In this document: positions 15,767 through 37,020 of the stretch, in pieces
Layout: each line of letters starts with the position of its first letter
Numbering within the stretch: position 1 is the first letter of the stretch
Origin: Vulcanimicrobiota bacterium
GTDB taxonomy: Bacteria; Vulcanimicrobiota; Vulcanimicrobiia; Vulcanimicrobiales; Vulcanimicrobiaceae
Assembly (NCBI GenBank): GCA_963714015.1
Contig: OY970223.1
Coordinates: 384,001-448,000 of the forward strand
Direction of reading: 5' to 3'
Length of the DNA stretch: 64,000 nucleotides
The notes under the pieces: generated by a model
Told to the model about the DNA's origin: nothing
The model's database searches: none
The model's input: the letters and a program-made list of their open reading frames with translations, nothing else
Made by a program: the position numbers and the translations under genes

Positions 15767-18599
15767 TCATCCGGCGCGCGCCTCGCGCCGAAGTCCGTGA
15801 AAGGCTTGCCATACCGTGGCAATCAGCCCGTCCTCGGCCGCCATGGGAATGCCGATGCGGTTGAAATGCATATGGAGCAAGCTGGCGCAAAGCTCGTCCG
15901 AATCGACGGCGAGGCGCCCCTCTCTTCTTTTCGCCATTCCGGAGGATCGGTCAGCATCCCGCGAATTCGCCGGACGCGAGGCCATTGAACGTTACGGGCC
16001 GCGCGCGCGATTTCCCGATTGCGCTCCATCCAACGATCGCCGTCAAAATGTTCGAACCATTGCTGGAGGAAAGCGCCGGCGAAAAGGAGCGACGCGGTGA
16101 CGCGCGACTCCCAAGTCAACGCGGGAGCGGAAGCGATAAACTCCAGCGCACGTCCGCTGTCGACGTGAAAGAGTTGCTCTGCGAGCGGCATCGCAGCCGC
16201 GCCGCCGTAGCGTTCCAGCTCCGGGATGTACGTATCCAACGCGTAGCGCGGTATCAGACCGCGACCGACCAAGGCCGTCAAAGCGCCGGCGAGCCCTGCC
16301 AGCAACGCTTTGCCATCGCCCGGCGTGTGGAATCGAATGCGCAGATGTGGTTGGGGGTCGGCATAGCGCAGAAAGAACCAACGGTCGATGGAGGCTCCGT
16401 TCAAAGACGCAAACAGCAGCGGAATCGATCGGATCAGCCCATCGATCTCCGATGCCGGGCAGTAAAGTTTCGCAAACGCCCACTCACTTCCCGGAGCAAA
16501 GGATTCCGCCGGGCCCGTTTCGGTGAACGCGGCGCTGCGGGCGGGGCGCGGCGCGGCCTGCGGCGCAATACCGGCGACGAACTCGTGCAAATAGCGCTCG
16601 CCGTCCTTAGCGAGCCAGAGGTGATCGAAGTCGGGAAACATCTCTTCCAACCGCAGCTTGGACCCGATTGGATAGCCGTCGTTGCCTGAACCCATTTGAT
16701 CGCGAATCAATTCAACCGATACGGGCGAGTCGAGATCCAAAAGCAGGCTCGAGATCCCGTTCCACGAGATAGACCCATCGCGGCACGTTCCAGCTTTCGC
16801 GCCAGTGCTGCAGGAACCGGTTCAAATCGTCTTTATGCGCGAACAGTTCTTCTCTCGTGAGCGTCCATACGGCCGGAGCGAGCACGAGCCTTTCATAGCG
16901 GACGCGCGGAGTGAACGGCATTTGAGCGGCGAAACCCCATGACCACAAGCGCGGAAGAACGTGATCTTGTTTTCCGATCATCGAAAGCAGCCGCATGTGG
17001 GGCGGCCCGAAGTAGGTCACCTGCAGCATGTAACTTTCTTTAATGAGCAGCCTGCGTTTGAGCGTGCGCGAATATGCGACGAATCGCGTACCTTCCAGGC
17101 CAATCAGAATATCGCGCGGCTCGATGCGGACGACACCGGCGGGCAATCGCTCGCGCCGGCCGGCCACGGCATAGCCGCTCGCAGGCACTTGCAGCAAACC
17201 GGCATAGTGCTGATCGTGCGGCGTGAATACGAGTTCGACCGGAAGCGGCGCATTGGGATCGGCGTCCGAGGACTCTTGAAGTGCGCCCGCGTCGATGTCG
17301 AGCGCTTCGGCAAACCGGTGGACCGTTTTATACGTGCCGTCCGTGGCCAGTCCGTGAACGGGACGAATCAGATAATTTCCCTCATCGAGATCCGCCCGAT
17401 CCTTCGCCGCGATTTGAAAACCGATCTCGCAGCCGTTCGTGCACGATGAACTCTCGGGCTGCAATCCGAGAGGCTGCAGATCTTGCCGCTTCAGCACGGC
17501 CTCTCGGCATCCGTCACGCAGTGCGCGGGCGATCAGGCGGGCTCGCAGATCGTCCTTTACTGCATCCGGCGCATCGGGCAGGTCCATCGGATCGTCCGGT
17601 GCTCCGATTCCGGAATCGGGGTCGACGAGTTCGAGCAGCGGTATGCGCCTGGAGTCGCCTTCGTAGCGCTCCATGAATTTGGACCGATATTTGGCGAGTA
17701 CCCGGGGACGCGCATTTGCAGTCATCAATGAAGCAAGAACGCTTGCGTCGGAGATCACTCGTTCCCCGAGCGCTCCTTCAAATGACTGAATCATGTTGAC
17801 TTGCGTGCCGGCCGGAACGCGGGCAGCGAAAATTTCAGTTGCGGCTTGCGGCGCTCGTTCGGGCGGTTCGCAGCCGGAAGGCCGCGTAAAAATCAGACAC
17901 CCGATATCGAGCAGCTTGTTTGTAGAGCTGTTCGGCGGCAGCCGGCGGCATTTGCAGCCTGTCGCACAAGGCGGTGCGCAGATCGCGCAGCGGCCGGTCG
18001 ATCGACGCGATCCGCAATATCTCCTCGAGCTGAGCCGACCAGCGAACGTTGAGCGGTTCGTAGTGCAGAATAACCGGATCGGCCGTATCCAAGCCTCGAC
18101 GCAGCCGCTCGGGGTGCCGTATGTGCAGCCGGTCGCCCCGCAAGACCAGCAAATCATTGGCGACGACCGGCAGATCTTCGCGTAACGTCCGATCGCTTTC
18201 ACTTGCCGCCAGTGCTGCATGCGTTTGGGCCGGATCGGTCGCCACGAATAGTTCGGGCGCCCGCGACGAAAGCTGCAACGTGGACGCGGGTCCTTGCTGC
18301 ACAACACCCGTGCCGGCAAACAGGCCGAACGGCGTGCTGCGGGTCGCCATCCGAAGCGCATAGGCGAGGGCCTTCAGCGGCGCGCGTTTCTTCTTTGCGG
18401 CGCCGCCGCGGCTCCACCTTTTGAGGCTTTCATGCAAGCTCGGCGACGCCAGAGCGATCGCCGCATCGAACAGTCCGGACTCGCGCAGCAGATCGCGCGT
18501 TGCCTCAAGCGGATCCGCCGCAGCGAAAATGTCGCGCGCAACGCGTGCCGGGAACATCGGAACCCGTCCGGTCAGCAGCACGATCCGGTTCTTGCGCAT
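15767..18599 (-). CDS. lanB: full-length LanB-type lantibiotic dehydratase (glutamylation + elimination domains), frameshifted
   Basis: AAIALASPSL, YALRMATRSTPFGLFAG, FTPRVRYERLVLAPAVW, VPRWVYLVERD..LDLDSP, WAFAKLY, WFFLRYADPQPHLRIRF, YIPELERYGG, AEQLFHVDS and SLLHMHFNRIG across four ORF pieces. Confidence 0.9.
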
Positions 18600-18926
18600 C
18601 TAAGGACCGACCACCGTCACGCTTCCGCGCATGTACGGATGCGGTTCACAGTAATAGTCGTACCGGCCGGCCTTGTGAAAGGTCGTCGTCCAGGACTTGT
18701 GCCAGTCGATCGGTCCCGAATCGATCGATTCCGCCGCTTGCGCGGTCACGGTGTGCGCTTGTTCGTCCTCGTTGACGAACGTCACCGAATCACCGACGTG
18801 AACGCGCAGGTTTTCGGGATGGTAACTATAGTCCGCGATGTGTACGACGTAATGGTGGTGGTTCGACGCACCCGGAGCGGCCGCTAGGAGCAGCACCGCG
18901 GCGATGGACGAAAGAAGTATTTTCAC
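18600..18926 (-). CDS. secreted cupredoxin (plastocyanin/amicyanin-like)
   Basis: Signal peptide; VHVGDSVTFVNED..AHTVT and YDYYCEPHPYMRG (type 1 Cu ligands H, C, H, M). Confidence 0.92.
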   Translation of the reverse strand: MKILLSSIAAVLLLAAAPGASNHHHYVVHIADYSYHPENLRVHVGDSVTFVNEDEQAHTVTAQAAESIDSGPIDWHKSWTTTFHKAGRYDYYCEPHPYMRGSVTVVGP

Positions 18927-18947
18927 GAACGATCCCTGCCTTTTCTT

Positions 18948-20645
18948 TTAAAGAGAGAACACGTAGAGTTTGCCGCCTCGAGGCACGTGCGCGGTCAATT
19001 GCGCAGCAGGCCCGCCGAAAGCCGCGAGTCCGCCGCCATATCCGCAGTAAACGGCCACGTACTGTTTACCGTCGACCATATACGTTACGGGCGGCGCAAC
19101 GATTCCCGATTGGAGCTGCTGATGCCAGAGCACCTTACCGGTCTTTGCATCGAAGGCGTAGAAACGGCCGCCCGCATTTCCGCTAAATACCAGGCCGCTC
19201 GCTGTGTCGAGCACGCCGCCGGTCCAAGGATAATCGCTGGGGTGCGTCCACACTTTTCGCCCGGTCAGCGTGTCGATGGCGCTCAATTCGCCGAAACCGT
19301 GCGCACCGGGTTCTGCAACGGTCAGGGACACTTCGCCGAAATAGCCGAACCGTTCGCGTAAATTCCCCGTTCCGGTTACTTGCGCGCACAGGTGCAATAT
19401 CGGAACGTACGCAAGTTTCGTCACCGGACTGTAGGCCATCGGATACCAGTTCTTGCCGCCGCCCGAACTAGGGCAGTCCAGCACCGTCTTGCCGACTTGC
19501 GGGTATTTTTGCGGATCCAGTATTGCCTTGCCTTGCGAGTCGTATCCGAGAATCGTGTTGTTCTTTACAAAGGGCCGAGCGTAAATGAGTTTGCCGCTTC
19601 GGCGATCGATGGCGAAGAAGTATCCGTTGCGATCCGCGTGCACGATTGCCGGAATACGGCGTCCGCCGCGCTGCAGTGTAACGAGCACCAGTTCGTTGAC
19701 GCCGTCGTAATCCCAAGAATCGTGCGGCGTATATTGGTAATACCACTTCATCGCACCGTCCGACGGGTCGAGTGCGAGCAGCGAATCCGTAAAGAGGTTC
19801 GCGCCGGGACGCTTTCCGCCGAACCACGGACCCGGATTTCCGGTTCCCCAAAACAACGTGTTGGTCTGCGGATCGTATGAACCGGTAACCCACGTGTCGC
19901 CGCCGCCGCGTTTGTACGCACCAGCGGGCCAAGTATTTCCTCCGGGTTCGCCGGGCGACGGAACGGTCCATCGCTTCCATAACCGCCGGCCCGTCTGCGC
20001 GTCGAATGCCGCTATGAACCCACGCGCGCCGAATTCGCCTCCGGCCACTCCGGTGATAACGCGTCCGCCTACGACGAGCGGCGCGCCGGTGATGGCGTGA
20101 TCTTTTCCGACCGCGACGACTTGACGGCTCCAGACGAGGCGACCGCTTTGCGCGTCGAGCGCGATCAAACGATCGTCGATCGTTCCGAGGAAAACATCGT
20201 TTCCATAGAGTGCTACACCGCGGTTGACGACGTCGCAGCAAACCGCGCGCAGCGCTTGCATGGAGATGTTCGGCACGTATTTCCAGAGTACGCGTCCGCC
20301 GGCTGCGTCCAGCGCGATCACGGTATCCATCGGCGTGGTGATGAACATCGTGCTCCCGTTGACCACAGGCGGAGATTCGTGCCCCTGCGGCAAGCCGGTT
20401 ACGTACGTGAATGCGACGTGAAGCGATCGAACGTTGGAGGGAGTGATCCGAGTGAACGGCGCGTACGCGCGGCTGTCGTAAGAACGGCGATACATCAGCC
20501 ATCCGTCGTCGCCGCCGGCCTCGAGAAGGCGAGCGTTGGTAACACTTGGATAGTCTTGATTCGCGCGGCCGTGGAGAGCCAACGGTCCCCAGAACAGTAA
20601 GACCAGAAAACCGCAGCAGAGCAGGAAGCGCCCTATCACTTTCAA
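18948..20645 (-). CDS. PQQ-dependent dehydrogenase, methanol/ethanol family
   Basis: Vicinal CC (AVCCDVVNRGVA), GGEFGARGF, WVTGSYDP..N.LFWGTGNPGPW, YQYTPHDSWDYDGVNE, ADRNGYFF, GGKNWYP, P.TYMVDGKQYVAV; no C-terminal heme domain. Confidence 0.95.
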   Translation of the reverse strand: MKVIGRFLLCCGFLVLLFWGPLALHGRANQDYPSVTNARLLEAGGDDGWLMYRRSYDSRAYAPFTRITPSNVRSLHVAFTYVTGLPQGHESPPVVNGSTMFITTPMDTVIALDAAGGRVLWKYVPNISMQALRAVCCDVVNRGVALYGNDVFLGTIDDRLIALDAQSGRLVWSRQVVAVGKDHAITGAPLVVGGRVITGVAGGEFGARGFIAAFDAQTGRRLWKRWTVPSPGEPGGNTWPAGAYKRGGGDTWVTGSYDPQTNTLFWGTGNPGPWFGGKRPGANLFTDSLLALDPSDGAMKWYYQYTPHDSWDYDGVNELVLVTLQRGGRRIPAIVHADRNGYFFAIDRRSGKLIYARPFVKNNTILGYDSQGKAILDPQKYPQVGKTVLDCPSSGGGKNWYPMAYSPVTKLAYVPILHLCAQVTGTGNLRERFGYFGEVSLTVAEPGAHGFGELSAIDTLTGRKVWTHPSDYPWTGGVLDTASGLVFSGNAGGRFYAFDAKTGKVLWHQQLQSGIVAPPVTYMVDGKQYVAVYCGYGGGLAAFGGPAAQLTAHVPRGGKLYVFSL

Positions 20646-22894
20646 CGCACCGTCCCCCGGCCGCTGCGAATTTCGTAACGGATCGACCACGTGCGCGCAA
20701 TCGGGACTCCGAGGAATTGAACGGATCCGCTCGTCGTGGGGGAAGCGGCAGCGAACGCCGGAGACGTAAACCTTCCGGCATCCTCGTTGAACAAGTTTTG
20801 CACCGAAAACACGATCGCTCCGTTATTGACGTTGAAACGAATGCCGGCCGAAGTACTACTGTACGCCGGCAAGTGCGCTGCGTTATTTGCGTCGACGAAA
20901 GCCGTTCCTACTCCAACGGTTACCGCCGGAGTGTGGTATGAGAATATCGCGCTCGCGCGATGCAGCGGCACGTTCCAGATTTGCGAGCCTGGGATCAGCG
21001 TTGAATTCTCGCCCGCAGGGAGCGCCGGCACGCCGGCAGCCGTCGCCGCATACGTCTCATAAGCCACGGCAAGATTGAAATTAGCGCCTAACGGCGAGTT
21101 GACGGAGGCGTACCATTCCTTGTCGACGCGCAGCGGCACGGTTACGTAGTGCATGAGATACAAATCGCTTGCGGTCAGCGGGCCACCGCCGCACAAGTAA
21201 GCGTATTGCTCGTTGAGTGCTTGCAAATAGCCGGACGGCAATGCGGCGCCCCCGGCCTGGGCGGCGACAACTAGCGCATCCTTCGTCGCGTCGTAAAATC
21301 CGCCGAGCGTGACGTTCGCCCTTCGCAGGCGTCGCGTTATCGCAGCCGTGACTCCCGCGCTGTGCGGGGGGTCGGGCGTGACCTGGCTCGGGCCGGAGGC
21401 GTAAGCGGCGTGCGAGCTGCAGTCGAAATCGGCAGCTCCGGGCACGGCAAGGCGGAGCGCCTGCGCGTAATACGTTTCGATGGTCTGTGTTTGCGCGGTA
21501 TATGCGTCCCACTTTAAGCGCGTAGCGTTACTCCAAGCCGAACCTTCGATGGATGCATTGACGTGCGCAGCCGCGAATGCTCCGGTTCTCGCGCCGAACT
21601 GACCGTCCCGGTGACCGACGACGAACGGCCGGTGCGATTGTAACTCATTGAGGCCGTCGTTCCGGAGCTTTTCGAGACCGTTTCAAACGGCTGTGCGTAC
21701 GCATCGGCTATCGTTTCGGTGTTGCTGAGCGAGAGCGTTGCGCTGTTTTGCCCGAAGCGCCGCGTAAAATTCAACATGTCGTAGCGTCCAGAGTATCCGA
21801 ACCCGGTGTAGTCGGAATCGGCGTTCCTTCCGCCAGCGCATCGATGTCGTCATCGTCCGCCGAACCGGCATACGCGACGTGCAGCGCAGTCCAATCGTCA
21901 CGTCCGCGCGTTTGCGCCGCGCGAATATAGCCGTCAAGCATTCGCGTCCGCTCGGTGTTGCCCGGGCCCGAACCTTCCGCAATCCCGCCGGGATCGACCA
22001 GCGAGAGTTGTGCGTTACGCCGGTCACTGCCCAGTGCCACTGCACTCACGCGAGCGCCGCCCAACCGGAATTCCACGTCCGCAGAGGCGGCCAGCTCGTG
22101 TTCGTTCGCCGAATGATCGTAGGCCGCTCCGCTTTGATCGAAAAACGTTTGGCCCGCAAGGGCGCCTTCGCCCAAGCGATCGGAGAGCACGAAGGCATAG
22201 TTCGGCCCCGTCAGCGTTCCTTTCAGCGCTTCATCGCCTTGCGATCCGCTCAGGATCGAGAGCTGCTGCTGCGGCGTGCCCGTCGGGCTTTGAAGATGAA
22301 GGTTCGGCGTAATCGAGCCGTCATCGGCTTGATCCGGAGTGAACGATTCGACGAGATCGCTTGGAACCGTAAAACGCGATTCCTGGCCTGTAGGGAGCGT
22401 GAGCGGCGTGCCGTTCAGTTCCAACGGTCCGGATCCGCCTTCGGATGCAGAGCGGTAATTCGGCACGAAATTCAGCGAATCGGTCACGCTGCCGCTGATG
22501 ATTGCGGCGACGCTCGCGGTGTTCGTCTGCAGCGCCCGAGCGGGAGCTTGGCGACGACCGAATCAATCGTTCGCAGCCCGAACGTCAAATCGAGCGTCGG
22601 ACTGTCGGCGACTTGTACCGGCGATGCGCCGTCTTTGCGCCGTGCAAAGATCGGAGTGCCTGCGACGGTTTCGACAGTCGCCCGCCCGTCGGATCCCGTG
22701 ACGCCGATATATCGCTCGGCGTCGCGGTCCTTCGCGTAAATCGACGCCGCGGAAACGGGGTGGCCCGTCGCGTCGCGCACGAAGACTTGCACCGTCATCA
22801 GTTGCGGACTTTGAACCTGGCCTGCCGATGCGGTCCCGGCAAGAGAAGCTGCGAGAGCAACGGCGCTCAGCACGTAACAAAGAAGCCTAGCCAT
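20642..22894 (-). CDS. TonB-dependent receptor-like outer-membrane protein, several frameshifts
   Basis: Signal peptide + VRDATGHPVSAASI (carboxypeptidase-regulatory-like N-domain), plug-like segment, beta-rich body, NVPLHRAS, FVDANNAAHLPAY, SVQNLFN near the C-terminus. Confidence 0.65.
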
Positions 22895-23631
22895 AGCAAG
22901 CGTTTTCGTTACGGCGATATCCCCAAATAGCCAGTGCACCGAAGAGCGTTGCGTAAATCGCCAACGTCACGAATGCCGTCACGGTCGAGGGGTCTCCGCC
23001 AACGGCCGACCACACCAGCTCGCCGTATTGACGGGTCGGGCTGAACGGTGAAATCGCAGCGACTACCGGCGGCAGAAACTGCGGCGGAAGCCACAGCCCG
23101 CCGATGAACGCAAGCGGCAAGTAGGTGAGATCGGTAATGGGCACCGACGTCTTCGGGCTGGTCCAGTAGCCGATTGAAAGGCCCATGACGCCGAAAACGC
23201 CTCCGCCAATCAGTAGTGCAACGGCAAACCGGAGCCAAGCGACGGCGGATAACGTAACGTGTCCGAGCAGAATCGCGCAAGCAATGACCAGCGCCGCCGT
23301 CGCGGTCGCGAAGATCAATGCGCAGACGAGGCGCGATGCGACACGCACGCCGGCGCCCAGCGGCAGCGTCCGAAGATATGAATCCAGACGGACGCGCGAT
23401 CGTGCGCGATTCCGACGCCGAATTGAAAGAGCGCAACGCCGATTACCGCGAACACAGCGTACGATGCCAGCGCGTAACGAGCAGATCCGCGTTCTTCGAG
23501 TACGCCAATCCGAAGAATACGTAAAGCATCGTCGGAAGGGCAAGCGACGGAACGGAGTACGCCGGCACCCGCAGCAGTTCCAAAGTAGAAAATCGTGTAT
23601 CGAGCCAAAAGTTTCTGAGCGTCTCACTCAT
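22887..23631 (-). CDS. ABC-2 type exporter permease, frameshifted
   Basis: LLRVPAYSVPSLALPTMLYVFFG, FQFGVGIA, YLRTLP, YLPLAFIGGLWLP..FLP.VVAAISPFSPT. Confidence 0.85.
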
Positions 23632-24478
23632 GATGCCCTCCAACCATTCTCAAGAAGACGTCCTCGAGCGAAGGCGCGGCGATTTCGAGATCGCGATAAG
23701 GGATATTTCTCTAGAACAATTCGCGCACGACCGCGTCGGGGTCGGAAGTAACGATGCTGTACCGGTTTCCGGCGATCGTCGCATTGGCGATTGGCGCCGG
23801 AACGGTATCGCTGGTGAAGGAAACTTTGCGAGCGCCGGACTGCGCGGATCGCGGCGATCGGCGCGTCGTCAAGACGCGTCCACAGGACATGACTATCGCG
23901 CGCGAAGCCAACGCTTCGGCTTCCTGCAGGTAATGCGTCGTGAGCAGAACGGTTGTTCGGCTTGCGACGATTCGGAAATCGCATGCCACACGCGCGCGTC
24001 TTCTACGTCGAACTGGTTGTGGGCCGTCCAAGACGACGAGCTGCGTTTCCGGTAATGCGAGCGCCGAACTGAGCGCCGCTGCTCGCGCCGCTTAGGCCGC
24101 AACTTGGCGGCGCGCGAGTTTCGAAAGACGAAACGCTCGAGCAGCGCGCCGAGCGGCACAGGATTCCGCGCAGCGTCCAAACGTAGCCGGCGACTCGCAG
24201 ACGTCATGGCGGCCGGCAGTCGTTGTTTTGCTGCGTAACCGATCAGACGCCGCGTGCGCATGGAAAGAGGCCGCTCTCCAAAGACGCGCACGTACCGCCG
24301 TCGAACGCCAGCTCCAGCACGCTGATCGTCGTTGTCTTACCGGCGCCGTTAGGTCCAGAAGCGCTACGCGTCTCCTGCTTTAATGTCGAACGAGACGTCC
24401 TTTACGGCGGCGGCTCCGCCGTAGGATTTGTGCAAATTGCGCACGGCGATGACTGTTTCAGTTTTGAGCGATATACAC
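23628..24478 (-). CDS. ABC exporter ATP-binding subunit, heavily frameshifted
   Basis: GPNGAGKTT readable near 24325-24357; TVLLTTHYLQEAEALASR; SLEDVFLR at the end. Confidence 0.8.
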
Positions 24479-24531
24479 GGGATAGGTCCCCTTTCAGATT
24501 TAGGCGCGCGCTTTGCGCAAGCACGATCTCG

Positions 24532-24998
24532 TTATAGGTGACGTGCGCGACGATCGCCGCGCCCACCGAACGGTGAGCAGCGCAGCAGACGAAGACTAAG
24601 CCGTCGCCGGATGGTGCGACGCGCGCGGATTGACGACGCGTGCATCACGCAAATCCGGCGGTCGTCAGCAGCAGGGCAGCTGCGGACATGGCCGCGCAGT
24701 TCACGCCAGCCTCTCCAGATGATCTCTTCGGACGCCGCAACGACCGCAAGCGCCGTTCCGGTCAAGGCAAACTTTCGAAGCGTTGCGGCGTCCGCAAAGT
24801 ATGGAGGCTTCGGAAGCCGCCGAACAACACGGCGTAGAGCGCCGCGCCCATCAGAGCGCCGAGCAACAGCAGCGGCAGATCCGAAGACATCCGTGCGGTT
24901 ACGCTTGCGTCGATCGCCAAAATTGCGGCGGCGACGATCGCCTGCAGCACGAATCCGGCAAGTACGACGTTGCTCGTTGCGGCAGCATTACCGAACAC
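24532..24998 (-). CDS. CPBP/CAAX (Abi) intramembrane protease, frameshifted
   Basis: Hydrophobic ORF pieces with AASEEIIWRG (EExxxR motif). Confidence 0.6.
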
Positions 24999-25803
24999 AT
25001 GCTACGCTGTAGATGATGCCTTCGTTGACGCGTCGTTGTTGAGCATCGCGTCGATGTCTTTTTCGTAAAAACGCCGAGCGGAAGCGCGCCAAGCCCAGCG
25101 ATATCGCAGTCAGCAGAGCGTTTTGCGCAACATGGCCGGCCTCGAGGATCGTAAACGGTACGCGCGCAGGCGGTATTTGAGCGGCAGCGCCAAAACGCCG
25201 CACTTATCAGCAGAGTGATGGACGAGGTGTCAACGGCCTCCGGATAGATGCACGCTTCGGCCAGCTTGCGTAGGCGATCTCGGAGATTCGCACGAGACGG
25301 TGATCGGGCGAATCGTAGAAGTAATGCCGCACGGCAGGCCGTCGACGCGATGCACCGCGACGTAGTTGTCCAGCGGGAACAGCCGCCGCCGGAAGGCGCC
25401 GTGCGGAGAAGCTGCTGGCCGCACCGTTCTTGAGTTTGACGCGCTTGGTCACGCCGTAGGCCGAGACAAGATCGTCGCAACTTGCACGAGCGTTATCGGC
25501 TTGGAGAGAATGATTGACTTGACCTGCGCCGCTGCAAGAGGTCGCCGAGCGTCGTGTCCCCGATTCGGGCGCCGGCAGATCCACGGAGGAAGATGCCGGA
25601 TTCGCTTCGAGGACCGCAGGGTGCTAATCAGCGCGTTCGGATTGGTCTGGATCAAGTATGCATTGGTTTGACGCAACGCGCGCGAACGGTAGAGGCTGGA
25701 GGCCTCGTGATAGCACTCGGCCGGATCGTCAAACAGTCTTCTGCGCGACGTCTTCACTGCCGTAAACCAGTTCGAGTGCGTTGATCGTTCTGTATTTCGT
25801 CAT
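24990..25803 (-). CDS. SagB/ThcOx-type azoline dehydrogenase (nitroreductase fold), heavily frameshifted
   Basis: DDPAECYHEASS, LRTAPSGG..FPLDNY, LEAGHVAQNALLTAISLGL; directly downstream of YcaO. Confidence 0.8.
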
Positions 25804-25815
25804 TTTCTCTGCCTA

Positions 25816-27155
25816 TTAAGGAAAGGGATGCGGAAAATGGTTGATCTCGTGGGGGTCGAGCCGCCGTCCCAGTAAACCTTCGGACACGCCGCCGGTGTAG
25901 ATGCGATCGATTCCAAGGAAACGGTGGGCGTGCTCGGAGTCTATCTGGCACAGCTCAGGACAGAACGCTCGCACAACGCGCAGACCGAGTTGCCGCAAGT
26001 CGGGGGCGGTGACGTCTACGGCGTAGACTTCCATTCCGCGCTGTCCCAAGCGGTTTACGATCGCGTCAATCTGCTCGCACACGGAGGGCCCGCTTACCGG
26101 CGGGACTTCCCTCACGTGCCGGCTCTGCGTCGCCGAGTCCATAAACGCCGACTCTTCGCCATGCGAGCCAAAAGCGTGCAGCGCCACATGGTCTTCGAAA
26201 TCGCGGACTTGCGAAAAATCGCCGTCGGGCTCGGTCCAATCAGGATTGAGAAAGCGCATTTGCCGCGCCCAGGCATATGTCTGGAATGCTTCGCGCACCG
26301 CTTTGCCGGCAGCGTCGATCATGGTTCGCGCGCTCGCGGCGCCGGTCGCGAGTTGCACATAGCCGGTTTCGTCGCGCACGAGCGCCATCGCACTGGGCAC
26401 GTCGCAGAAAGGCGACAAGTCTACGACGGTGTAGCGCAACCCCTTGACGTTATAGTACGTATCGTGATTGAGTTCCATCTCGGCAACTCCGGTACAATCG
26501 ACGATCGGCATCGAGAGCCGCGTGTACCACATCAGCAAAAACGCGTCGCGTTCGACCAGTTCGTATAAGCCCGACAGCAGCGCCTCTTCAAACGTGGGCG
26601 CGCAGGCAACGCCGGAACTCGTGCTGTAGACTACGCGCGGCTCTTCCGGCCGGCGATGTTCGGGCAGATAGCAAAACGCCGAAGGGATCCAAACGGCCTC
26701 ACCCGATCGCAGGTTGGTTCCACGCACCCAGTGCGCCGGCGTGTCGTCGTCGAAGGCGACGAACTTGTCGGTCGTTTCGTATTGCGCTTTCGAAAAGAAG
26801 TTCAAATGCGCGGTAGGCACATGCGGGCCTTCCAGCTCGCGCGCCGTCGAAAAGTGGAGTCTTCGAGCGGAACGTACGAGAGCGAGTACCGCTCTGCCGC
26901 CTCTCCAAGCGCAGCGGCCAACGCCCGGTCGCGGTGCGGATGAATTCCGCCGCTATACAGCGGAACCGAGGCGCCGATGGTCAACTGCGAATCCGCCGCC
27001 AAGCACGTGACGTGCCACATGCGCGGATCGCTGGGCTGGGCCATCATGTGAAAGCGCAGATGCGCGATGCCGGTATACGGCGAGAGCAATTTCTTGAGGA
27101 CCGGCAGCGATTGCTCGAGCGGGGTCACGCCGCTGGGCCGCTTCAACGTATCCAT
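25816..27155 (-). CDS. YcaO cyclodehydratase (azoline-forming type), one frameshift near 26830
   Basis: ALAAALGEAAERYS, STSSGVAC, LLSGLYELVERDAF, KAVREA, VDVTAPDL..LGL.VVR, C-terminal PHPFP (PxPxP motif). Confidence 0.95.
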
Positions 27156-27157
27156 GA

Positions 27158-28104
27158 TTAGCTCTCGTACCAGGGCGACGGGGCGGCAACGTTCACGCGG
27201 CCGGAACATTCTGGACAGCGCGGTACGCGTAAGACGTCGTGCGATGAGATCCCGCGATCGCCGAGCGGCGCAAGCGAAATCAGCGTTCCGACCAGCGCTG
27301 GATCGGATGCACCGATCCAGCGCAACGCGTACGTGACGGCGAGGCCGGCAGCCATCATATCAATGGGCATGCATTGCTCGAACGCCGCCTCGGCTTCGTC
27401 GAGCTCAGATACTCCGCGGGGTACTTCACATTGGAAGCGCGCCGCAGTTGAAAGCAGGCGTAACACGCGGTTTCGCCCGGAACGAACAGCGGCCCGATTG
27501 CGGAGAACCGTCCATCGTATGGAAGAATCTGCAGCCACGGCTGCTTTTTGAGGATCGCGGCCTTGTTGATTTCCCGCAGGCGGCTCAACTCGCCCGTCGC
27601 CGGAGCGACGATTGCGAGATCGACTTCCTCGTCGTCAAAACTGGAGAAACTCGAGGTTTGCGCGCCCTCTATTCCGGAGCACAAGAGTCCCCGGAGAACC
27701 TCGCTCGCAGCATTGCTGGACCCTATGACGGAGATGCGCGCGCTTGCGAGGCGATCGCGGACGATTTCGGTCGAGCTTGCACCCCCGATCGATGAGAAGA
27801 AGACGGAAGTGCGCGTCAGCTTATCCTTTTCTGCGGGAAGCGTTCCGTCCATGAGCAGATCGTAGCGTTCCAGCAAACCGATCGCGGCATTGACGACCTG
27901 CGCATCGCTTCCGGAAATCGAAGCGATGTCTTCGACGCTGTGCCGCCCGTCCAGCACGGGCAGCAACTTTGGAAGGATCGCGCCGGCAGCGCGGCCCTTG
28001 AGGCAGATGACCGAGTCGCCGTAGTGGAAGATTACTTGGTCGTCATGCTTGTAGACGCGATACCAGGGTTTGAAGGCTTTGGTTGGCGCAATAGGATCCG
28101 TCAC
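27158..28104 (-). CDS. TOMM leader-binding / E1(ThiF)-like cyclodehydratase partner with N-terminal RRE, frameshift near 27410
   Basis: LLPVLDGRHSVEDI (RRE wHTH), PWLQI, IGPLFVPGETACYACFQLRR, VLRVPRCPECS; GAGGAG RBS before GTG 28104. Confidence 0.88.
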
Positions 28105-28152
28105 GTTATAACTCCTCGGTGAAACGGGGTATAAGAGAGCTGACACCCGGGC

Positions 28153-28201
28153 CCCGGGGGACGCGAGTTTGCCGCGATAATCGACAAACTTGTGCCCCCG
28201 G
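28153..28201 (-). terminator. stem-loop between precursor and modification genes
   Basis: Imperfect inverted repeat CCGGGGGCACAAGTTTGTCG / CGGCAAACTCGCGTCCCCCGG; no U-tract. Confidence 0.6.
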
Positions 28202-28218
28202 TTGAAGTGTGCTGCTTC

Positions 28219-28356
28219 CTAGAGAAGCGACACTTTGCAGGTTGTGGACGACGTGCACGTGCTGCTGGCAGCCAGACCCGTTGCATCTTCGTCACCGCCG
28301 ATTTCGGTTACGCTTACGTCGAGCAGTTGGTCGATGTTCTCGGTGATTTGTTCCAT
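28219..28356 (-). CDS. RiPP precursor peptide MEQITENIDQLLDVSVTEIGGDEDATGLAA-SSTCTSSTTCKVSLL (45 aa)
   Basis: AAGGAG RBS; acidic leader; Ser/Thr/Cys-rich C-terminus; sits directly upstream of the RRE/YcaO genes. Confidence 0.9.
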   Translation of the reverse strand: MEQITENIDQLLDVSVTEIGGDEDATGLAASSTCTSSTTCKVSLL

Positions 28357-28426
28357 GGTTTTCTCCTTCAGTTGTGTTGTGGGGTTTTTTACAGGCCGGA
28401 CGCTCGGAGCGCGTTGATCCTGCATC

Positions 28427-29075
28427 TTATTGCGACAATTCCCACTGGTAGTTGATGGGAATGTCGGTGTACGTGTGCACGATTTCATGCACGTCGAAAT
28501 GCGTAGCGCTAAAAGCGCCGTTGAGAAAAGCGAGTCGTCCGTTGACCTTGACGTCTTCGCCCACGGTGAATCCATGCGCGATCACGATGTTAGAGTACGT
28601 TCCCGATACCGTCAGGCTGGCGCGATCGCCGGCATTCTGCGAGACGACTTTGACCGGCACGTTTTTCCACTCGGTTTGCGAAACTTTGACCGGCACGACT
28701 GCGCTCCAGACGGCATGCGCAGGCTCTAAGGTTGGCGATATTCGTTCGCAGCACGAGCGGGATCGTGTTGTAAATCGTTACGATGTCGGACGGCGTTCCG
28801 GGCGATACGATCTCGCCGTCGGCGCTTACGGAAGCGTCGAGCGTATTGGTGGTTCCGTCCGTTCGGCGATAGGAAACCACTGCGCGATTCGAACCGGACT
28901 CGGCGACATGCAGAGGACTGGAGAGTGTCGTCGCTCCTCCGTCGGGCGAAACGTGCCCGACATAGTGGAAGTTCAGTGCGACCGAGTCGCCGGCGGCGTC
29001 TACGGGCGGACGCAGCGCTTGCGGCGCGGCGGTTCCGAGAAGAGCCGCGGCCAAAAGTACGGGAGAGATTCTCAT
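28427..29075 (-). CDS. secreted hypothetical protein (paralog 3 of triad), frameshift near 28720
   Basis: MRISPVLLAAALLG signal peptide; joins the end of ORF 28590-30053 with ORF 28427-28696. Confidence 0.6.
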
Positions 29076-29082
29076 GATGACG

Positions 29083-29771
29083 CTACTCCTGTTCCGGCGC
29101 GGTGCGCGCCATATGCCACTCCAGCGCATCGTTTGCGTCTGAGGTCCGGCGTTAACGAGTTCACTGGCGGCAAAATCGCAGCGATCGAATCCGGCCGGCG
29201 CGACGCGCAGCGCGAATTGGGCGGTGACGTCGATTGGAACGGTATATCCGGCGTAGGACGCAGTAAGCGTCTGCGAACCGGTCCCCTGAATGACCGCTCC
29301 GCCCGACCCGGCCGAGACGATCTTCAGTTGCACGGGCAGATAGCCAATCTGCCCGGAGTCACCGGTCTCGATCGGAACCTGTCCGTTCCACGTCGCACCC
29401 GGCTGCAGCAAAGGAGGCGCGCTCGCAAGCAGACCCGCAACCGTGTTGAATGAATCGATGCGGTTGCCGGCATCGCCCGAATCGATCGTCCCGTCGGCGG
29501 CGAGTTTGCCTGCCGCACTGGCGTTGTCGGTCGACGATTTTCCGGCCGTGACGATCCGAACCGAGCGCGCGTTTCCCACAGTAATCGTCGCGGTGCGATC
29601 GAAGACTACGCGCTGACCGTTCCAAAACGATCCGTCAAACTGCAGGTCGTACGAAATCGAGACTCCCGGCGAAGACGGTAAAAGTATGTGTGGGGCGCCG
29701 GCGACCGAACCTGCCGCGGTTGCGAGCAACCCGGCGAGCGTTGCGCTCGCGCCTCGCGTGAGGGCGTTCAT
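29083..29771 (-). CDS. secreted hypothetical protein (paralog 2 of triad)
   Basis: MNALTRGASATLAGLLATAAG signal peptide; ATG overlaps the upstream stop; 3' end approximate. Confidence 0.6.
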
Positions 29772-30511
29772 GAGTTCTTTCCTTTCAGATTGACTGTCCA
29801 GTGATACACGCCGCCGCCCGCCGGTACGTTGCGGCGCCCGTAGGTCTCGCGAGCGTACAAAGCCGCGTTCGTCAGCGTGCCGGCACGAAAAACCGCATTG
29901 ACGGAGACGGCGATGTCCGCAGTCAACGGGCTTCCGGCCGCCCCCGCTTGCAATCGGCGTTCGCCTTGTGCCGTAAGCGTTTGAACGTTGCCGTCCTCGC
30001 GCACGGAAACTCTGACCGGAACTGGCGCCGTCAGCGTATTGGATATCCAGCACATGGTCGTTGCGCGCCAGGTCGAACCGGCGACCGTCGAATCCGAATG
30101 CCCGAGCAGCGAGAGCAGCTCGTTGTAATCGAAGACTTGATCCGCAACACCTGAGGCGGTGTCGGGAACGACGATTCCAGCCGAGCCGAAATGCGCTTTT
30201 ATTGCGTTCGAGGTGCGGCTTTCGCGCTTCACGCCCAGATGCAGAATCTCGTCCTGCGTTACGCGGTCGTTCCGCCCGCTGACGATTACGGCGCCCTGCG
30301 CAATCTGCTTGAGATCGAGCAGGCCGAGATAGCGCTCGGAGTAACCGCCATAATCGGCTGAAAAGTCGAACACGTACGAAGCCGACGTCCCAGTGCCGCT
30401 CGGTAGAATATGCAGGCCGCTCGTTGGGAGCGCGACGGAGCCGCCGAACGTCCAGGTGAGGACGGCGATGCCGGCGATCCGGCCGAGGCGGTGGGCGCGC
30501 GAGTTTTTCAC
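29768..30511 (-). CDS. secreted hypothetical protein (paralog 1 of triad)
   Basis: GTG 30511; hydrophobic N-terminus; beta-rich body. Confidence 0.6.
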   Translation of the reverse strand: MKNSRAHRLGRIAGIAVLTWTFGGSVALPTSGLHILPSGTGTSASYVFDFSADYGGYSERYLGLLDLKQIAQGAVIVSGRNDRVTQDEILHLGVKRESRTSNAIKAHFGSAGIVVPDTASGVADQVFDYNELLSLLGHSDSTVAGSTWRATTMCWISNTLTAPVPVRVSVREDGNVQTLTAQGERRLQAGAAGSPLTADIAVSVNAVFRAGTLTNAALYARETYGRRNVPAGGGVYHWTVNLKGKNS

Positions 30512-30518
30512 AGCAAGC

Positions 30519-30653
30519 CTACGGGTTCGGCTCGACCGTGTCGAACGGCCGCAGCACATGACCGGCGTGTCCGGTGTACGGATGGACCGTGAACTGCGCT
30601 TGGGCGGCGTGCGGGTGGACCAGCAGTAAGAATAAGAACAGAAACGCTTGCAT
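30519..30653 (-). CDS. small secreted His-rich peptide MQAFLFLFLLLVHPHAAQAQFTVHPYTGHAGHVLRPFDTVEPNP (44 aa; absent from ORF track)
   Basis: AAGGAG RBS 8 nt before ATG 30653; hydrophobic stretch + AQA signal-peptidase motif; stop lies 7 nt before the next gene. Confidence 0.65.
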   Translation of the reverse strand: MQAFLFLFLLLVHPHAAQAQFTVHPYTGHAGHVLRPFDTVEPNP

Positions 30654-30778
30654 CGTCATCACTCCTTTTGTGATGCGATGATAGGAGCGGCAGACTTACT
30701 GCGTATCTAGCGAATTCTTAGGCAGAGCGCTAACTATGAAGTTAACTAGGGGCCTGACTATATGCGATTCACCACTGG

Positions 30779-33400
30779 CTAAATGCCGTGGGCGCGGGCG
30801 CACTCGGCGGCATCTTGCCGCGTGCGGCAGTGCAGTTTGCGCAGAATGGATGCAACGTGGGCGTTCACCGTATAGGTGCTGCGGCCGAGATCGCGGGCGA
30901 TTTTCGCGTTCGTCGAGCCGCGCGCAATCTCGCGCAAGATGGTAACTTCCGTTTTGGTCAGCGCGGAAAGCGCCGAGACGGCAGATTCTAATCCGGGCAT
31001 CGGCAGCGCCGTCAAGAGGTTTGCGATGCCGCCCAGACGGGACTCACGTAAGAGCGAAACCGCGGGTTCCATGCTCTCTCCGGCCTCCACGTGAAGGTAT
31101 GCCGCGCGGCTCGCCTTCATTACCGCTCGTTCCACCGAGCCCAAATCGCGGCCAACCTGCTCGACGGGACTAAGGATCGCGTTGGCGCGCGGAAGTTGAT
31201 GCATGATGATGCAGGCCAAGGTACAGTAGGCGTGCGCGAATGCAAATCGCCGGCGCTCGTCGGACCTTCCTCGCAGCCCGCGTTGCGTCAAAGCGAGCGC
31301 ATGCGAAATGGCTTCGTCGGCATCTTCACGCTGTCCGCAGGCCGACGCATAGAGCGCAATCTCCGCCCAGCGAAGCCCGCGCCGTCCATCGCTGATCTGC
31401 GACTGCGCGGTGCCCCACACGCAATCCAATGCGCCGCGGAAACGGCCCAACCACGCGGCGCGCATCGCATCCGCCGACGCCATCGCAGAAGAACTGAGCT
31501 CGCCGTGTCCCGGATGCTCGAGTATTCTGCTGCGCAGTTCGTCCAGATCGTCGCCCTCTCCGAACTCCGTTCGCAGCGCATAAGTACCGGCGAGGGCCGA
31601 TGCGGCAAGAAACACGTCTCCCGCCTTCTCCGCGCACTCGATCATCCTCTCAAGTTCCGCGAGCGCTTTCGCGGTGTCGTATCCGAAGCCGAGCCAGATC
31701 GAATACCGTACGCTGTGGCAGCGCGCCGCCAGCGCGTACAAGTCGTGCAGTTTCGCCAAATCGATGGCCTTTGACGAAAGCGCCATGGCTTGCTGTGATT
31801 CGCCGGCCGCGTAGGCGACGAAACTGGCCTGATGGTACAAGGTCGCTCGAACGGGAGTCGAATCGGAGCGGTTTGCGAGCTGGAGGGCCTGCTCAGCGTA
31901 GTCTTTCGCTTCGGCAAGACGCCCCGTTATGGCGCAGCCCGTGGCGATCGTTCCCATCATGAGCGCATCGCCGTCCGCCACGAGCGCTTTGGCGCTGGTC
32001 GCTCGAATCAGCGCATCGATAACTTTTTCCAGCCGCACCCGGTCGACGGATCGATTTCTGCGAATCAATTCGAGCGCGTACCGGTAGTGAGCGGCGAGCC
32101 GCTCCGAATCGTCCGCGGCCGCTTCGACTGCCCGTTCGAACAACGCATCGCAACGGGCGAAGTCCGCCGATTTGGAAGCCAGCACGGCGCGAAGCAGCAA
32201 CAGGGCGGTAGGTTGCTGTTCGGCGCGATCGCTTTCGGCGTCGAGCGCCGCTTGAACGATGTCGGAGCGTCCGGAATCGAGAAGCGCCATTCCGTTGCGC
32301 ACGAGCAGCTCGCGAATCTCTTGGCGCGCACCCGCGCGAATGTAGAGAACCAGCGCTTCCGAGATCCGGGCTCCGCGCTCCAGCCGTTTTGCCCCCTTCA
32401 CGGAGGAAGCACGAACCGCCGCTTTTCCGCGCAACGATAATCTGCTCTGCAAGAAGTCGGCGAAGAGACCGTCGCAGTGCAGGACCGCGTGGGATTCGAC
32501 GTGCAGAAACGGCACGTAGCGCCGCAAATCGTCGACTAATGCCTGCGCATCTTCCCATTCCTCCAAAAGCAGGTCGAACTCAATTGCCTTGTAGTGGCAG
32601 ATATCGAACAAGAACTGCTGTTGCCGCTCAGTCAGATTTTGGAAGACTTGCTGCGCGAGGTACTCGTAGATCATCTCGCGAGATCCGGCGTTCGATTCAA
32701 CGGCCGAAACACTCGGCGTCATGCGATTCGCGCGAACCGCCAGCACGAAGCCGGCCGGCCATCCACCGGTTAACCGATAAGCTTCCCGCGCGGCCTGTTC
32801 CCCTTCGGCGCCGATCAGGCGGCGCGCGCATTCCTGCGCCTCTTCCTCCGTGAAGCGGAGCATACGCTCGTCGATGACCGAGCGCAGCCGATTGTACGCG
32901 GTCCACGAAGCGATAGGAAAGCGGCTTGCACGCCGCGCGGCAAGTATCCAACGGATATTCGACGGCGCCGCGTCCAGAAGCATCATCAGGAACTTCTCGA
33001 CGTCCGAATCCGCTCCGGTGAAGTGCAGATCGTCGATATGGATATATCCGGAGTAGCCTTGCAGATGCTCTCGAATGCTGGCAACGAGCCATTCCACCGG
33101 CGGTGCGTTGACATTCGCGTGCGCGCTGTCGTACACCATCTGCAGCCCGGGCGCGACCGGGAGCAGAGAATCGATGAATCCCCGCACAAAACCGGCGAGG
33201 CTGACTCCCTCGAACGTGACGCCGTATCGAATCCACGATGCTTGGCTGGCATCGAGGTACTGACGAATCGCGGTTGATTTGCCGAAACCGGCGGGCGCCG
33301 CTACAACGGCGATCGGATAGGCGGTTGCATCCGCGAGGGCATTGAGAATTCGGCGTCGCTCTATGATGTCGCCACCAGTGATTTCTATGCTTCCAATGCC
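30779..33400 (-). CDS. MalT-like STAND ATPase-TPR-LuxR HTH transcriptional regulator (start uncertain)
   Basis: IERRRIL, VVAAPAGFGKST, IDDLH, LRFTEEE, TGGWPAG, IYEYLAQQVF, LTKTE..IL..IARG.TNAKIA..LGRSTYTVNAHVASILRKL. Confidence 0.9.
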   Translation of the reverse strand, partial: GIGSIEITGGDIIERRRILNALADATAYPIAVVAAPAGFGKSTAIRQYLDASQASWIRYGVTFEGVSLAGFVRGFIDSLLPVAPGLQMVYDSAHANVNAPPVEWLVASIREHLQGYSGYIHIDDLHFTGADSDVEKFLMMLLDAAPSNIRWILAARRASRFPIASWTAYNRLRSVIDERMLRFTEEEAQECARRLIGAEGEQAAREAYRLTGGWPAGFVLAVRANRMTPSVSAVESNAGSREMIYEYLAQQVFQNLTERQQQFLFDICHYKAIEFDLLLEEWEDAQALVDDLRRYVPFLHVESHAVLHCDGLFADFLQSRLSLRGKAAVRASSVKGAKRLERGARISEALVLYIRAGARQEIRELLVRNGMALLDSGRSDIVQAALDAESDRAEQQPTALLLLRAVLASKSADFARCDALFERAVEAAADDSERLAAHYRYALELIRRNRSVDRVRLEKVIDALIRATSAKALVADGDALMMGTIATGCAITGRLAEAKDYAEQALQLANRSDSTPVRATLYHQASFVAYAAGESQQAMALSSKAIDLAKLHDLYALAARCHSVRYSIWLGFGYDTAKALAELERMIECAEKAGDVFLAASALAGTYALRTEFGEGDDLDELRSRILEHPGHGELSSSAMASADAMRAAWLGRFRGALDCVWGTAQSQISDGRRGLRWAEIALYASACGQREDADEAISHALALTQRGLRGRSDERRRFAFAHAYCTLACIIMHQLPRANAILSPVEQVGRDLGSVERAVMKASRAAYLHVEAGESMEPAVSLLRESRLGGIANLLTALPMPGLESAVSALSALTKTEVTILREIARGSTNAKIARDLGRSTYTVNAHVASILRKLHCRTRQDAAECARAHGI

Positions 33401-33528
33401 GTTAGGCGGCCCTGATAAGGCCTGCTGCACCACGGTCCTCCAAGCGCGGCGCCGGCTCCCGCCGGCGTCGAAACGCTGTAAATGGCACTTTGCCGTCAAG
33501 CGCATGCGACCCTTCGCCGGCACTGCAT

Positions 33529-33999
33529 CTAATCCAAAGCGAGTTCCATGAAGGTTGGGCAGCGATAATCGACTTCGCCGTACGGCTCGCATTCTCGAAA
33601 TCCCAGCGCTCGATACAGTTGGTATGCCGCCGTCAGCCTCGTCTTGTCGGTGTCCAGGACCAACCGACGAATCTTCGCGTTCCGCGAGAATTCGACTGCA
33701 CGGGACATGAGCTTGCGGGCCAATCCGGCGCCTCGGAACTCGGGACGAACGTAGAGTTTACGGATCACCGCGGTCGATGGATCGAGCCGCACCAGCGCGA
33801 CGCAGCCTGCGGCTTCGTCGTCGACTGTAGCGACCAGCGCCAGATTCTGGGGACCGTAGAACGCCGGCAGATCTTGCAACTCGTTTTCAAAGGTTCGATG
33901 GCGCAAGTCCGGGTCCAAGCTGTCCTCGTACTCCAACGCAAGGTTCCGAAAGTGCTCGAAACTGCGCTCGTCTTGGGCAGCGCACAAAAAATCGTTCAC
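33529..33999 (-). CDS. GNAT family N-acetyltransferase
   Basis: AGCVAL, IRKLYVRPEFRGAGLARKL, LVLDT, AYQLYRALGF. Confidence 0.9.
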   Translation of the reverse strand: MNDFLCAAQDERSFEHFRNLALEYEDSLDPDLRHRTFENELQDLPAFYGPQNLALVATVDDEAAGCVALVRLDPSTAVIRKLYVRPEFRGAGLARKLMSRAVEFSRNAKIRRLVLDTDKTRLTAAYQLYRALGFRECEPYGEVDYRCPTFMELALD

Positions 34000-37003: not shown

Positions 37004-37020
37004 ATGGGGTGAATCCCTAC
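37004..37020 (-). promoter_or_regulatory. operator box 2, GTAGGGATTCACCCCAT
   Basis: Ends 36 nt from ATG 36968; same geometry as box 1. Confidence 0.7.

Follow-up and report, generated by a model that had tools for sequence, protein, structure and literature searches.

An azole RiPP gene cluster with a fused LanB and a PQQ dehydrogenase in an uncultured Vulcanimicrobiota bacterium: a predicted route to linear azole/dehydroamino-acid peptides

[quoted passage not shown] Here we report a RiPP gene cluster in which azole machinery is found together with a LanB in one full-length piece. The cluster occupies 15767-33592 of a stretch of 64,000 nucleotides (G000:C1:384001-448000, analysed as a whole and hereafter called the window) from the genome of an uncultured, diderm soil bacterium of the phylum Vulcanimicrobiota (Eremiobacterota), which is assembled as a single 3.56-Mb contig with an estimated completeness of 89.6%. 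To our knowledge hardly any member of this phylum has been cultured, and none of its natural products has been characterised. With rather more confidence than doubt, we read the locus as one RiPP cluster whose azole machinery and fused LanB would yield a linear polyazole/dehydroamino-acid product, and of which a pyrroloquinoline quinone (PQQ) dehydrogenase is part.

Goadsporin (god, Streptomyces) and the spongiicolazolicins resemble the cluster in YcaO cyclodehydration, in an FMN (flavin mononucleotide) dehydrogenase, in glutamyl-tRNA-dependent serine dehydration by a LanB-type enzyme, in having neither LanC nor a pyridine synthase and in being linear, as described in PMC10676384; for the present product linearity is a prediction. 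They differ in that the god LanB is split over two proteins, whereas here it is fused as in NisB and MibB. The host here is diderm, the core consists of Cys and Ser runs, and the gene set includes a TonB-like barrel, secreted beta-barrels and a PQQ dehydrogenase. A possible counterpart of the goadsporin-type N-acetyltransferase, a GNAT gene at 33529-33999, lies nearby but is not conserved, recurring weakly in one other cluster locus (L017) only, and was rejected as a core member. Dehydrazoles such as carnazolamide are likewise linear peptides with azoles and dehydroalanine (Dha), but their dehydratase, according to the same study (PMC10676384), is a leader-independent enzyme with a LanM-type DUF4135 domain fused to a cyclase-like one, where ours is a LanB of class I.

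Thiopeptides (thiomuracin, Tbt; thiocillin, Tcl; thiostrepton, Tsr) share with the cluster a Cys/Ser-rich core, azole formation by an E1-like protein, YcaO and a dehydrogenase, LanB-type dehydration and a TIGR03891 match on the LanB C-domain. Their dehydratase is split, however, and is accompanied by a second PF14028-type enzyme for the [4+2] step, whereas there is one PF14028 domain per genome both in G000 and in G376, a relative with an intact cluster; and a profile of the LanB clade described here, run against the PDB, reaches TsrE only weakly and neither TbtB nor TbtD. Class I lanthipeptide synthetases (NisB/NisC, MibB, MadB) have a full-length LanB of about 1000 aa, include the best solved relatives of ours, and share its conserved motifs; here, by contrast, the genome has no LanC, azole machinery sits in the operon, and Cys is likely consumed as thiazoles. 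In the open literature, subscription papers and MIBiG lying outside the search, we found no description of a YcaO cluster that has a full-length LanB but lacks LanC. YcaO proteins do occur in some lanthipeptide clusters, without this layout being described in the accessible part of the source (Walker 2020, PMC7268733), and a Synechococcus 'LanB-like' cluster considered as a precedent was discarded as LanM-like (PMC10783134).

The gene list, order, coordinates and common direction given by the preliminary description were borne out by Pfam and NCBIfam searches and by alignment to orthologues, all the genes that it named being found. From the precursor start at 28356 down to the LanB stop at 15767 the order is precursor, E1-like protein, YcaO, SagB, CPBP/CAAX protease, ABC-2 ATPase, permease, TonB-receptor-like barrel, PQQ alcohol dehydrogenase, cupredoxin and LanB. 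Every real gene between 15767 and 33592 is on the minus strand, and translation-table-11 lists of open reading frames (ORFs) show the genes chopped into overlapping frames: of the genes first named, only the precursor, the cupredoxin and the PQQ dehydrogenase are open as written, the others being readable only through frame shifts and in-frame stops. On the window pieces, Pfam finds Lant_dehydr_N twice, Lant_dehydr_C on a third piece, a cupredoxin, a PQQ beta-propeller dehydrogenase and YcaO on two pieces, with weak ABC-2 and CarboxypepD_reg matches besides. Much of what follows relies on comparison with L014, a locus with the full gene set and intact proteins.

LanB (15767..18599, minus strand) carries both the glutamylation domain (PF04738) and the elimination domain (PF14028), read through three frame shifts at about 17924, 16747 and 15915. 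An intact homologue of 1012 aa (P0002) is colinear with it over residues 12-1002 in four pieces separated by three single-base frame breaks, and tblastn places P0002, P0003 and P0009 each colinearly between about 18590 and about 15776, in frames -3, -1, -2 and -1. A search with the middle LanB piece gave 39 homologues, 38 of which combine PF04738 with PF14028 in a single protein; of the 14 closest to it (39-62% identity), 13 have both domains and a length of 934-1037 aa, and one, of 883 aa, has the N-domain only. The preliminary description had allowed for a real stop and restart near 16740. At this junction one frame ends in VYLVERDLEPAFGS and the next starts MDLDSPVSV, and the break itself, which lies at about 16748 within an ERDL...LLDLD motif, consists of a single-base change in a run of T. 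Since this motif is continuous in intact homologues, which are unsplit, and R659, D660, L664, L665, D666 and L667 are invariant in a 13-sequence alignment (A1), the break is a frame change and not a boundary between two genes. On sequence grounds, then, LanB is one NisB-sized gene, full length as first described, and not a split pair.

The frame-corrected protein is identical to the intact L014 LanB at 502 of 941 positions and retains the stretches RMATRSTPFG, VVANDL, ELERYGG and HMHFNR, which we take to be the motifs of catalysis in NisB. In the PDB, a profile of the clade has five matches, among them MibB (1.9e-103), MadB (9g04; 4.2e-95) and NisB (5.7e-53); the only thiopeptide protein of the five is TsrE (3.9e-07), and neither TbtB, TbtD, PbtD nor any other pyridine synthase is among them. 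The C-domain matches TIGR03891 ('thiopeptide-type bacteriocin biosynthesis') with 142 bits. Note that the LanB of another, otherwise intact cluster (L056, G330:C1:1315354-1318318) is also read in two overlapping frames; its break, at profile position about 420-428, lies away from the domain boundary and is probably another assembly indel.

Neither a LanC nor a second elimination-like gene had been seen in the preliminary description, and genome-wide Pfam searches agree: PF05147 (LanC) has no match in the whole 3.56-Mb contig, and PF14028 has one locus, LanB itself. The LanC search works, because the same model matches in G376 and on the LanC of G004. In G376 there is likewise no second PF14028, the single one lying inside LanB, and the sole LanC-like match is in a 1093-aa frame on another contig than the cluster. 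The LanB of G004, a genome of the same bacterial family, was considered as a related system and rejected: it belongs to an ordinary class I cluster (L007, G004:C63:1-5380) made up of LanB (1038 aa), LanC and a PCMT-type O-methyltransferase. Ten Vulcanimicrobiota genomes hold yet other full-length LanBs (L024-L041), 31-35% identical to that of L014, with no YcaO and no tblastn-detectable LanC within about 17 kb; several of them adjoin an ABC ATPase or a LuxR-type regulator.

The azole machinery is equally recognisable. YcaO (25816..27155, minus strand; PF02624, 6.2e-54) is 54% identical to its L014 orthologue (240/443), which scores 269 bits on TIGR03604 (cut-off 219), and ends in HFPHPFP, in keeping with the PHPFP end first reported. 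The E1-like, leader-binding cyclodehydratase partner (27164..28146, minus strand) is identical to the 331-aa L014 protein at 146 of 319 positions (46%), and the latter reaches 45.5 bits on TIGR03882 against a cut-off of 36.9. The SagB-type FMN dehydrogenase (25000..25803, minus strand) is 63% identical to the L014 SagB after frame correction (163/258), the orthologue scoring 154 bits on TIGR03605 (cut-off 78). An azoline-forming YcaO of the SagD type, its E1-like partner and SagB are thus all present, as judged from homology.

The precursor (28219..28356, minus strand) is a 45-aa peptide, MEQITENIDQLLDVSVTEIGGDEDATGLAASSTCTSSTTCKVSLL, that aligns with precursors of L014, L017 and L023, with D13, V16, A30, S31, S32, C34, S37 and C40 invariant. 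Further family members occur in L056 and L066, and all six share a D-L/S-V-V leader motif and a core that opens with ASS and continues in Cys/Ser/Thr runs. Downstream of SagB lies a small CPBP/CAAX-type intramembrane protease (about 24516..24986, minus strand), placed by alignment to its L014 and L023 orthologues, which carry the motifs EExxWRG, FAAAH and HxxYN, and recognised besides by motifs of the form EExxWRG and HxxxN; Pfam has no match for it on the window fragments. This small CPBP gene separates SagB from the ABC ATPase; two loci have, in addition, a CPBP/Rce1-like protease (PF02517) adjoining LanB, at 5781-6398 in L014 and 8079-8696 in L017, and no copy of this second protease is detectable in the window. 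The exporter comprises a DrrA-like ATPase (23639..24495, minus strand), recovered by frameshift-aware alignment to an L014 orthologue that scores 186 bits, below cut-off, on TIGR01188, and an ABC-2 type permease (22893..23634, minus strand), 142 of whose 246 aligned residues are identical to the L014 permease, itself matched by PF01061.

How far do these genes travel together? A profile search with alignment A1 found two genome contigs and ten metagenome contigs, where a scan of genome contigs with the middle LanB piece alone had produced 85 pattern matches, none of them confirmed, against the two loci given by A1. Scanning the phylum, we found LanB matches in 38 of 401 genomes, with the cluster context only where LanB is at least 40% identical to that of L014. 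Taken together, the window cluster belongs to a conserved family of RiPP gene clusters, mainly of Vulcanimicrobiota, with at least eight other loci, intact or partial and rearranged. The full set is present, rearranged, in L014, in G376 (L011/L023; a metagenome-assembled genome, MAG, titled Candidatus Velthaea, phylum Vulcanimicrobiota) and in G330 (L056). In L014 a second CPBP gene (-) and LanB (+) are followed by PQQ dehydrogenase, barrel, permease, ATPase, CPBP, SagB, YcaO, E1-like gene, precursor and secreted protein, all on the minus strand. In G376 and G330, LanB (-) is followed by LuxR, secreted protein, precursor (bracketed in our reading of the order), E1-like gene, YcaO, SagB, CPBP, ATPase, permease, barrel, secreted protein and PQQ dehydrogenase, all on the plus strand. 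Partial sets occur in L016 (LanB on the plus strand, PQQ dehydrogenase and barrel on the minus), in L010/L015 (a MAG titled Limnocylindrales) and L012 (PQQ dehydrogenase then LanB, same strand), in L017 (E1-like gene, precursor, secreted protein and LuxR on the minus strand, then LanB and CPBP on the plus, up to the contig edge) and in G290 (L065/L066, G290:C140). The last holds the whole operon from azole genes to dehydrogenase plus a precursor, in whose core Ser and Cys alternate, and has no LanB within about 12 kb upstream; LanB seems to be a detachable, more loosely attached part of the family.

The PQQ dehydrogenase, by comparison, is present in eight of nine distinct loci, the ninth (L017) ending at a contig edge, and it, the TonB-like barrel and the secreted beta-barrel protein stay with the azole genes at each locus where this side can be seen, however rearranged. 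Both the dehydrogenase and the TonB-like barrel are conserved members of the family and not bystanders, a point missing from the preliminary description. The window enzyme (18948..20690, minus strand; PF01011), of the methanol/ethanol family and with a WDYDG motif, scores 577.7 bits on TIGR03075 (cut-off 480; L014 orthologue 555) and is the sole member over cut-off among 18 matches in G000. Homologues at 1e-60 or better occur in 160 of the 401 phylum genomes, a tally that includes six genomes flagged unpublished. In an unrooted maximum-likelihood tree, a single branch, supported at 96/96, divides eight cluster-linked dehydrogenases from eight unlinked ones, and the same queries detect no TonB-like barrel, ABC-2 or secreted-barrel neighbours beside the eight unlinked paralogues. 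All 16 carry WD(Y/F)D, whose extra Asp, two residues after the catalytic Asp, is presumably a lanthanide ligand. The best PDB matches are 6zcw/6zcv and 4mae, which we take to be lanthanide-dependent PQQ alcohol dehydrogenases of the PedH/XoxF type; the WDYDG of the window enzyme aligns to WDFDG of 6zcw. The likeness to PedH/XoxF enzymes thus extends to TIGR03075 membership and this aligned motif, whereas the present enzymes form a distinct subclade within a RiPP operon, no cytochrome partner is seen, and of the loci only the one in this window has a cupredoxin. For pqqC there was no match in G000, but the control matched in no genome either, so that absence is not shown.

The barrel gene (20657..22939, minus strand) encodes a protein 49% identical (358/737) to a 765-aa L014 protein. 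Neither the window pieces nor the L014 orthologue have a Pfam or NCBIfam match over cut-off, there being one weak match to CarboxypepD_reg; in the ESM Atlas the orthologue falls among CarboxypepD_reg/Plug/TonB_dep_Rec clusters (feature score 0.98; template-modelling score, TM, 0.69-0.79 over 570-694 residues). Upstream of the precursor lie three paralogues of the secreted beta-barrel family, all on the minus strand and in alignment A3: a short one at 28427..28729, with the C-terminal half only and 43% identity to a 110-aa L014 protein; one at 29145..29771, identical at 66 of 202 positions to a 265-aa L011 protein; and one of 263 aa at 29768..30559. The family has no Pfam or NCBIfam match and only four database homologues. 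An AlphaFold model of one member, P0042 (mean predicted confidence, pLDDT, 83), is a beta-barrel around a helix; Foldseek finds no PDB match to it at E 0.001 or better, and VIA-align gives matches that hold at the level of fold only, best to the N-terminal barrel of lipovitellin/ApoB (Z 10.5-11.3) and to LolA (Z about 8). The modelled fold suggests a carrier of a hydrophobic ligand. Beyond these genes follows a 937-aa MalT/LuxR-type STAND regulator (30779..33592, minus strand; PF00196 plus AAA domains; NF003420 MalT 160 bits, below cut-off), whose orthologues adjoin LanB in L011/L023, L017 and L056. The cluster reaches 33592 and takes in the three paralogues and the regulator, beyond the bounds first given.

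A pathway may be proposed from this gene content. A precursor of roughly 45-60 aa, with a conserved leader and a Cys/Ser/Thr-rich core opening ASS, would be acted on by the E1-like partner, YcaO and SagB, which would make thiazoles and (methyl)oxazoles out of Cys and some of the Ser/Thr; the one-piece, class-I-type LanB would then convert remaining Ser/Thr into Dha and dehydrobutyrine via glutamyl-tRNA. With neither LanC nor a pyridine synthase present, the product is most likely linear: a polyazole/dehydroamino-acid peptide akin to goadsporin, with a fused dehydratase taking the place of the split one. The CPBP protease might remove the leader or confer immunity; the ABC-2 pump, the secreted LolA-like beta-barrels and the TonB-receptor-like barrel could move a hydrophobic product across two membranes, in or out; and the lanthanide-type PQQ alcohol dehydrogenase of the same unit may act on the product or depend on it. 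The preliminary description had proposed a linear azole/dehydroamino-acid hybrid of a possibly undescribed class. The enzyme set fits such a hybrid, itself a prediction; and because a linear azole/Dha peptide is chemically of the goadsporin kind, what appears new is an enzyme architecture rather than clearly a product class.

Several points weigh against this interpretation. Product structure, chemistry, direction of transport and the part played by the dehydrogenase are all predicted from genes, and acceptance of an azole-bearing peptide by a full-length LanB would be without precedent. LanB is not always adjacent, and because the G290 azole operon has none nearby, it may be no more than an accessory, or may even form a system of its own. 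LanC was not found beside the other loci, where it was probed by tblastn with one LanC fragment only. The unlinked dehydrogenase paralogues that define the branch in the unrooted tree were chosen from the top of one hit list, and the TonB-receptor assignment draws on language-model features and predicted structure in place of a Pfam match. Finally, the cluster is riddled with frame shifts, at a density of about 2.8 per kb against a background of 0.14 per kb, some 20-fold higher, which could mean real pseudogenisation.

Could the window copy, then, be a truly decayed, non-functional remnant? Frameshift-aware alignment of the window genes to the intact L014 proteins counts one frame shift each in the E1-like gene and YcaO, 14 in SagB, at least two in CPBP (with one in-frame stop), seven in the ABC ATPase (with two stops), two in the permease, three to four in the barrel, three in LanB and, doubtfully and at the N-terminus, two in the PQQ dehydrogenase, the genes given without stops having none. 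This comes to about 35 frame shifts and three in-frame stops in 12.4 kb. For the background, 159 ORFs of at least 200 aa from 22 relatives' loci were compared with G000, and the 44 with a match outside the cluster at ≥45% identity and ≥60% coverage show seven frame shifts in 51.1 kb. Besides this excess, decay would account for the concentration of the damage (21 shifts in SagB and the ABC ATPase), for the survival as open frames of the PQQ dehydrogenase and the cupredoxin, which are of use alone, and for two same-genus genomes, G001 and G002, having no LanB match.

Yet rpoB, rpoC and one class I aminoacyl-tRNA synthetase are frame-split in G000 as well; the rpoB and rpoC splits lie outside the window, at 2035484-2038733 and 2063474-2066972 of G000:C1, and the rpoB tail match holds two TGA codons. 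Because rpoB and rpoC are essential, the assembly must carry indel errors, and genome-wide frame-breaking indels also fit a completeness of 89.6% for a closed contig. Moreover, almost all events in the cluster are single-base and biased towards missing bases (27/35 lack one base), with few stops, whereas neutral decay also brings substitutions, stops and larger deletions; and once the frames are corrected, amino-acid identity is no lower than in intact genes (SagB 63%, YcaO 54%). For these reasons we favour, with fair confidence, a locally poor consensus over real decay, to which we still assign an appreciable, if clearly smaller, chance. Flanking DNA of G001 and G002 was of no use for an error rate, offering only matches of 57-955 bases at 66-96% identity and no synteny, and a crude ORF-length statistic, by which the cluster ranks at the 23rd percentile among windows of the genome, was uninformative and is superseded by the homology-based counts. 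With indels even in rpoB and rpoC, gene calls from this assembly are unreliable, and the window copy needs polishing before it is trusted.

The peptide might be tied to the periplasmic PQQ dehydrogenase and the unit not be simply antibiotic: exported by the ABC-2 pump and handled by LolA-like carriers, the RiPP would either be re-imported through the TonB-type receptor as a metal- or cofactor-binding shuttle (for lanthanide, copper or PQQ) or be oxidised by the dehydrogenase as a periplasmic tailoring step. A receptor gene within a biosynthetic cluster is typical of metallophore loci, and methanobactin operons associate a RiPP precursor with a TonB-dependent transporter and periplasmic helpers in the service of a metalloenzyme, albeit by MbnBC oxazolone/thioamide chemistry with no YcaO, SagB or LanB; the likeness here is one of general layout (precursor, receptor, periplasmic proteins), known from genes alone. 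Retention of dehydrogenase, barrel and secreted protein at every visible locus, the branch that sets the linked dehydrogenases apart, the status of the window enzyme as the only TIGR03075 protein over cut-off in G000, its matches to 6zcw/6zcv and 4mae, and the WD[YF]D motif in all 16 sequences, presumed to mark lanthanide use, all fit. Against this, few classical ligands are left once azoles are fully cyclised, the cupredoxin is absent from the other loci, both ABC-2 pumps and CPBP proteases typically serve the export of antibiotics and immunity to them, and no RiPP lanthanophore or comparable cluster was found in the literature searched. We regard such a role as unlikely on balance, though worth entertaining. 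Were it true, it would make a new functional class of azole RiPP, with the first full-length LanB outside lanthipeptides together with YcaO, and in the oxidation version the first PQQ-dependent RiPP tailoring step.

A macrocyclic product is improbable. A pyridine like that of thiopeptides could be made by the C-terminal domain of LanB or by some enzyme not recognised as such, or thioether rings could form without LanC between Dha and uncyclised Cys; the cores do resemble thiopeptide cores, being Cys/Ser-rich with Ser-Ser right after the leader, the LanB C-domain bears the thiopeptide-type name of TIGR03891, and the family includes proteins of unknown function. These proteins, however, are secreted beta-barrels and therefore not cytoplasmic enzymes, G000 and G376 offer a single PF14028 domain each, and the clade profile finds class I dehydratases in the PDB and not TbtD, PbtD or TbtB. 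Least credible of all is that pump, barrel, PQQ dehydrogenase and cupredoxin form an unrelated alcohol-oxidation/uptake operon caught between RiPP genes: such dehydrogenases are common in the phylum, and the ABC ATPase scores 142 bits on TIGR03864 ('PQQ-dependent alcohol dehydrogenase system'), below the cut-off of 302, but the linkage survives inversion and reshuffling in eight loci, and the linked dehydrogenases keep to their own branch while unlinked paralogues lack these neighbours.

Some genes in and around the cluster were tried as core members and rejected because they do not recur in the other cluster loci; like the GNAT, they are treated as neighbours. They are the amicyanin/plastocyanin-like cupredoxin (18600..18926, minus strand, open frame; PF00127, 1.2e-11; TIGR02657 56 bits, below cut-off), which tblastn does not find at other cluster loci; a 330-aa di-cupredoxin protein with two plastocyanin/azurin-type copper domains (35089-36081, minus strand); and a SARP/BTAD regulator (13381-15660). 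A second large LuxR-type regulator (37017-39242, minus strand), just past the cluster, was also not found in the other cluster loci. On the other side, 11066-12958 (plus strand) encodes a 630-aa protein with a TrbI-like conjugation domain and an S26 signal-peptidase domain, and the left flank may belong to a conjugative element. Between 40000 and 57000 the GC content falls from about 61% to 51-55%, with only short ORFs and weak codon bias; a foreign island, or another stretch of poor assembly, might explain this.

Returning to the linear azole/dehydroamino-acid peptide as the preferred product, a fused, class-I-type LanB acting after YcaO raises the question of how a LanB with its own leader-binding domain shares a substrate with a cyclodehydratase, and offers a new enzyme pairing for engineering. 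That the azole genes stay linked, through rearrangements, to PQQ dehydrogenases of a private clade, to LolA-like carriers and to a TonB-type receptor points to a function beyond antibiosis, such as metal/cofactor traffic or periplasmic tailoring. In the diderm host, the envelope module and the dehydrogenase would suggest a role tied to the periplasm, whether export across two membranes, a re-uptake shuttle or oxidation of the peptide.

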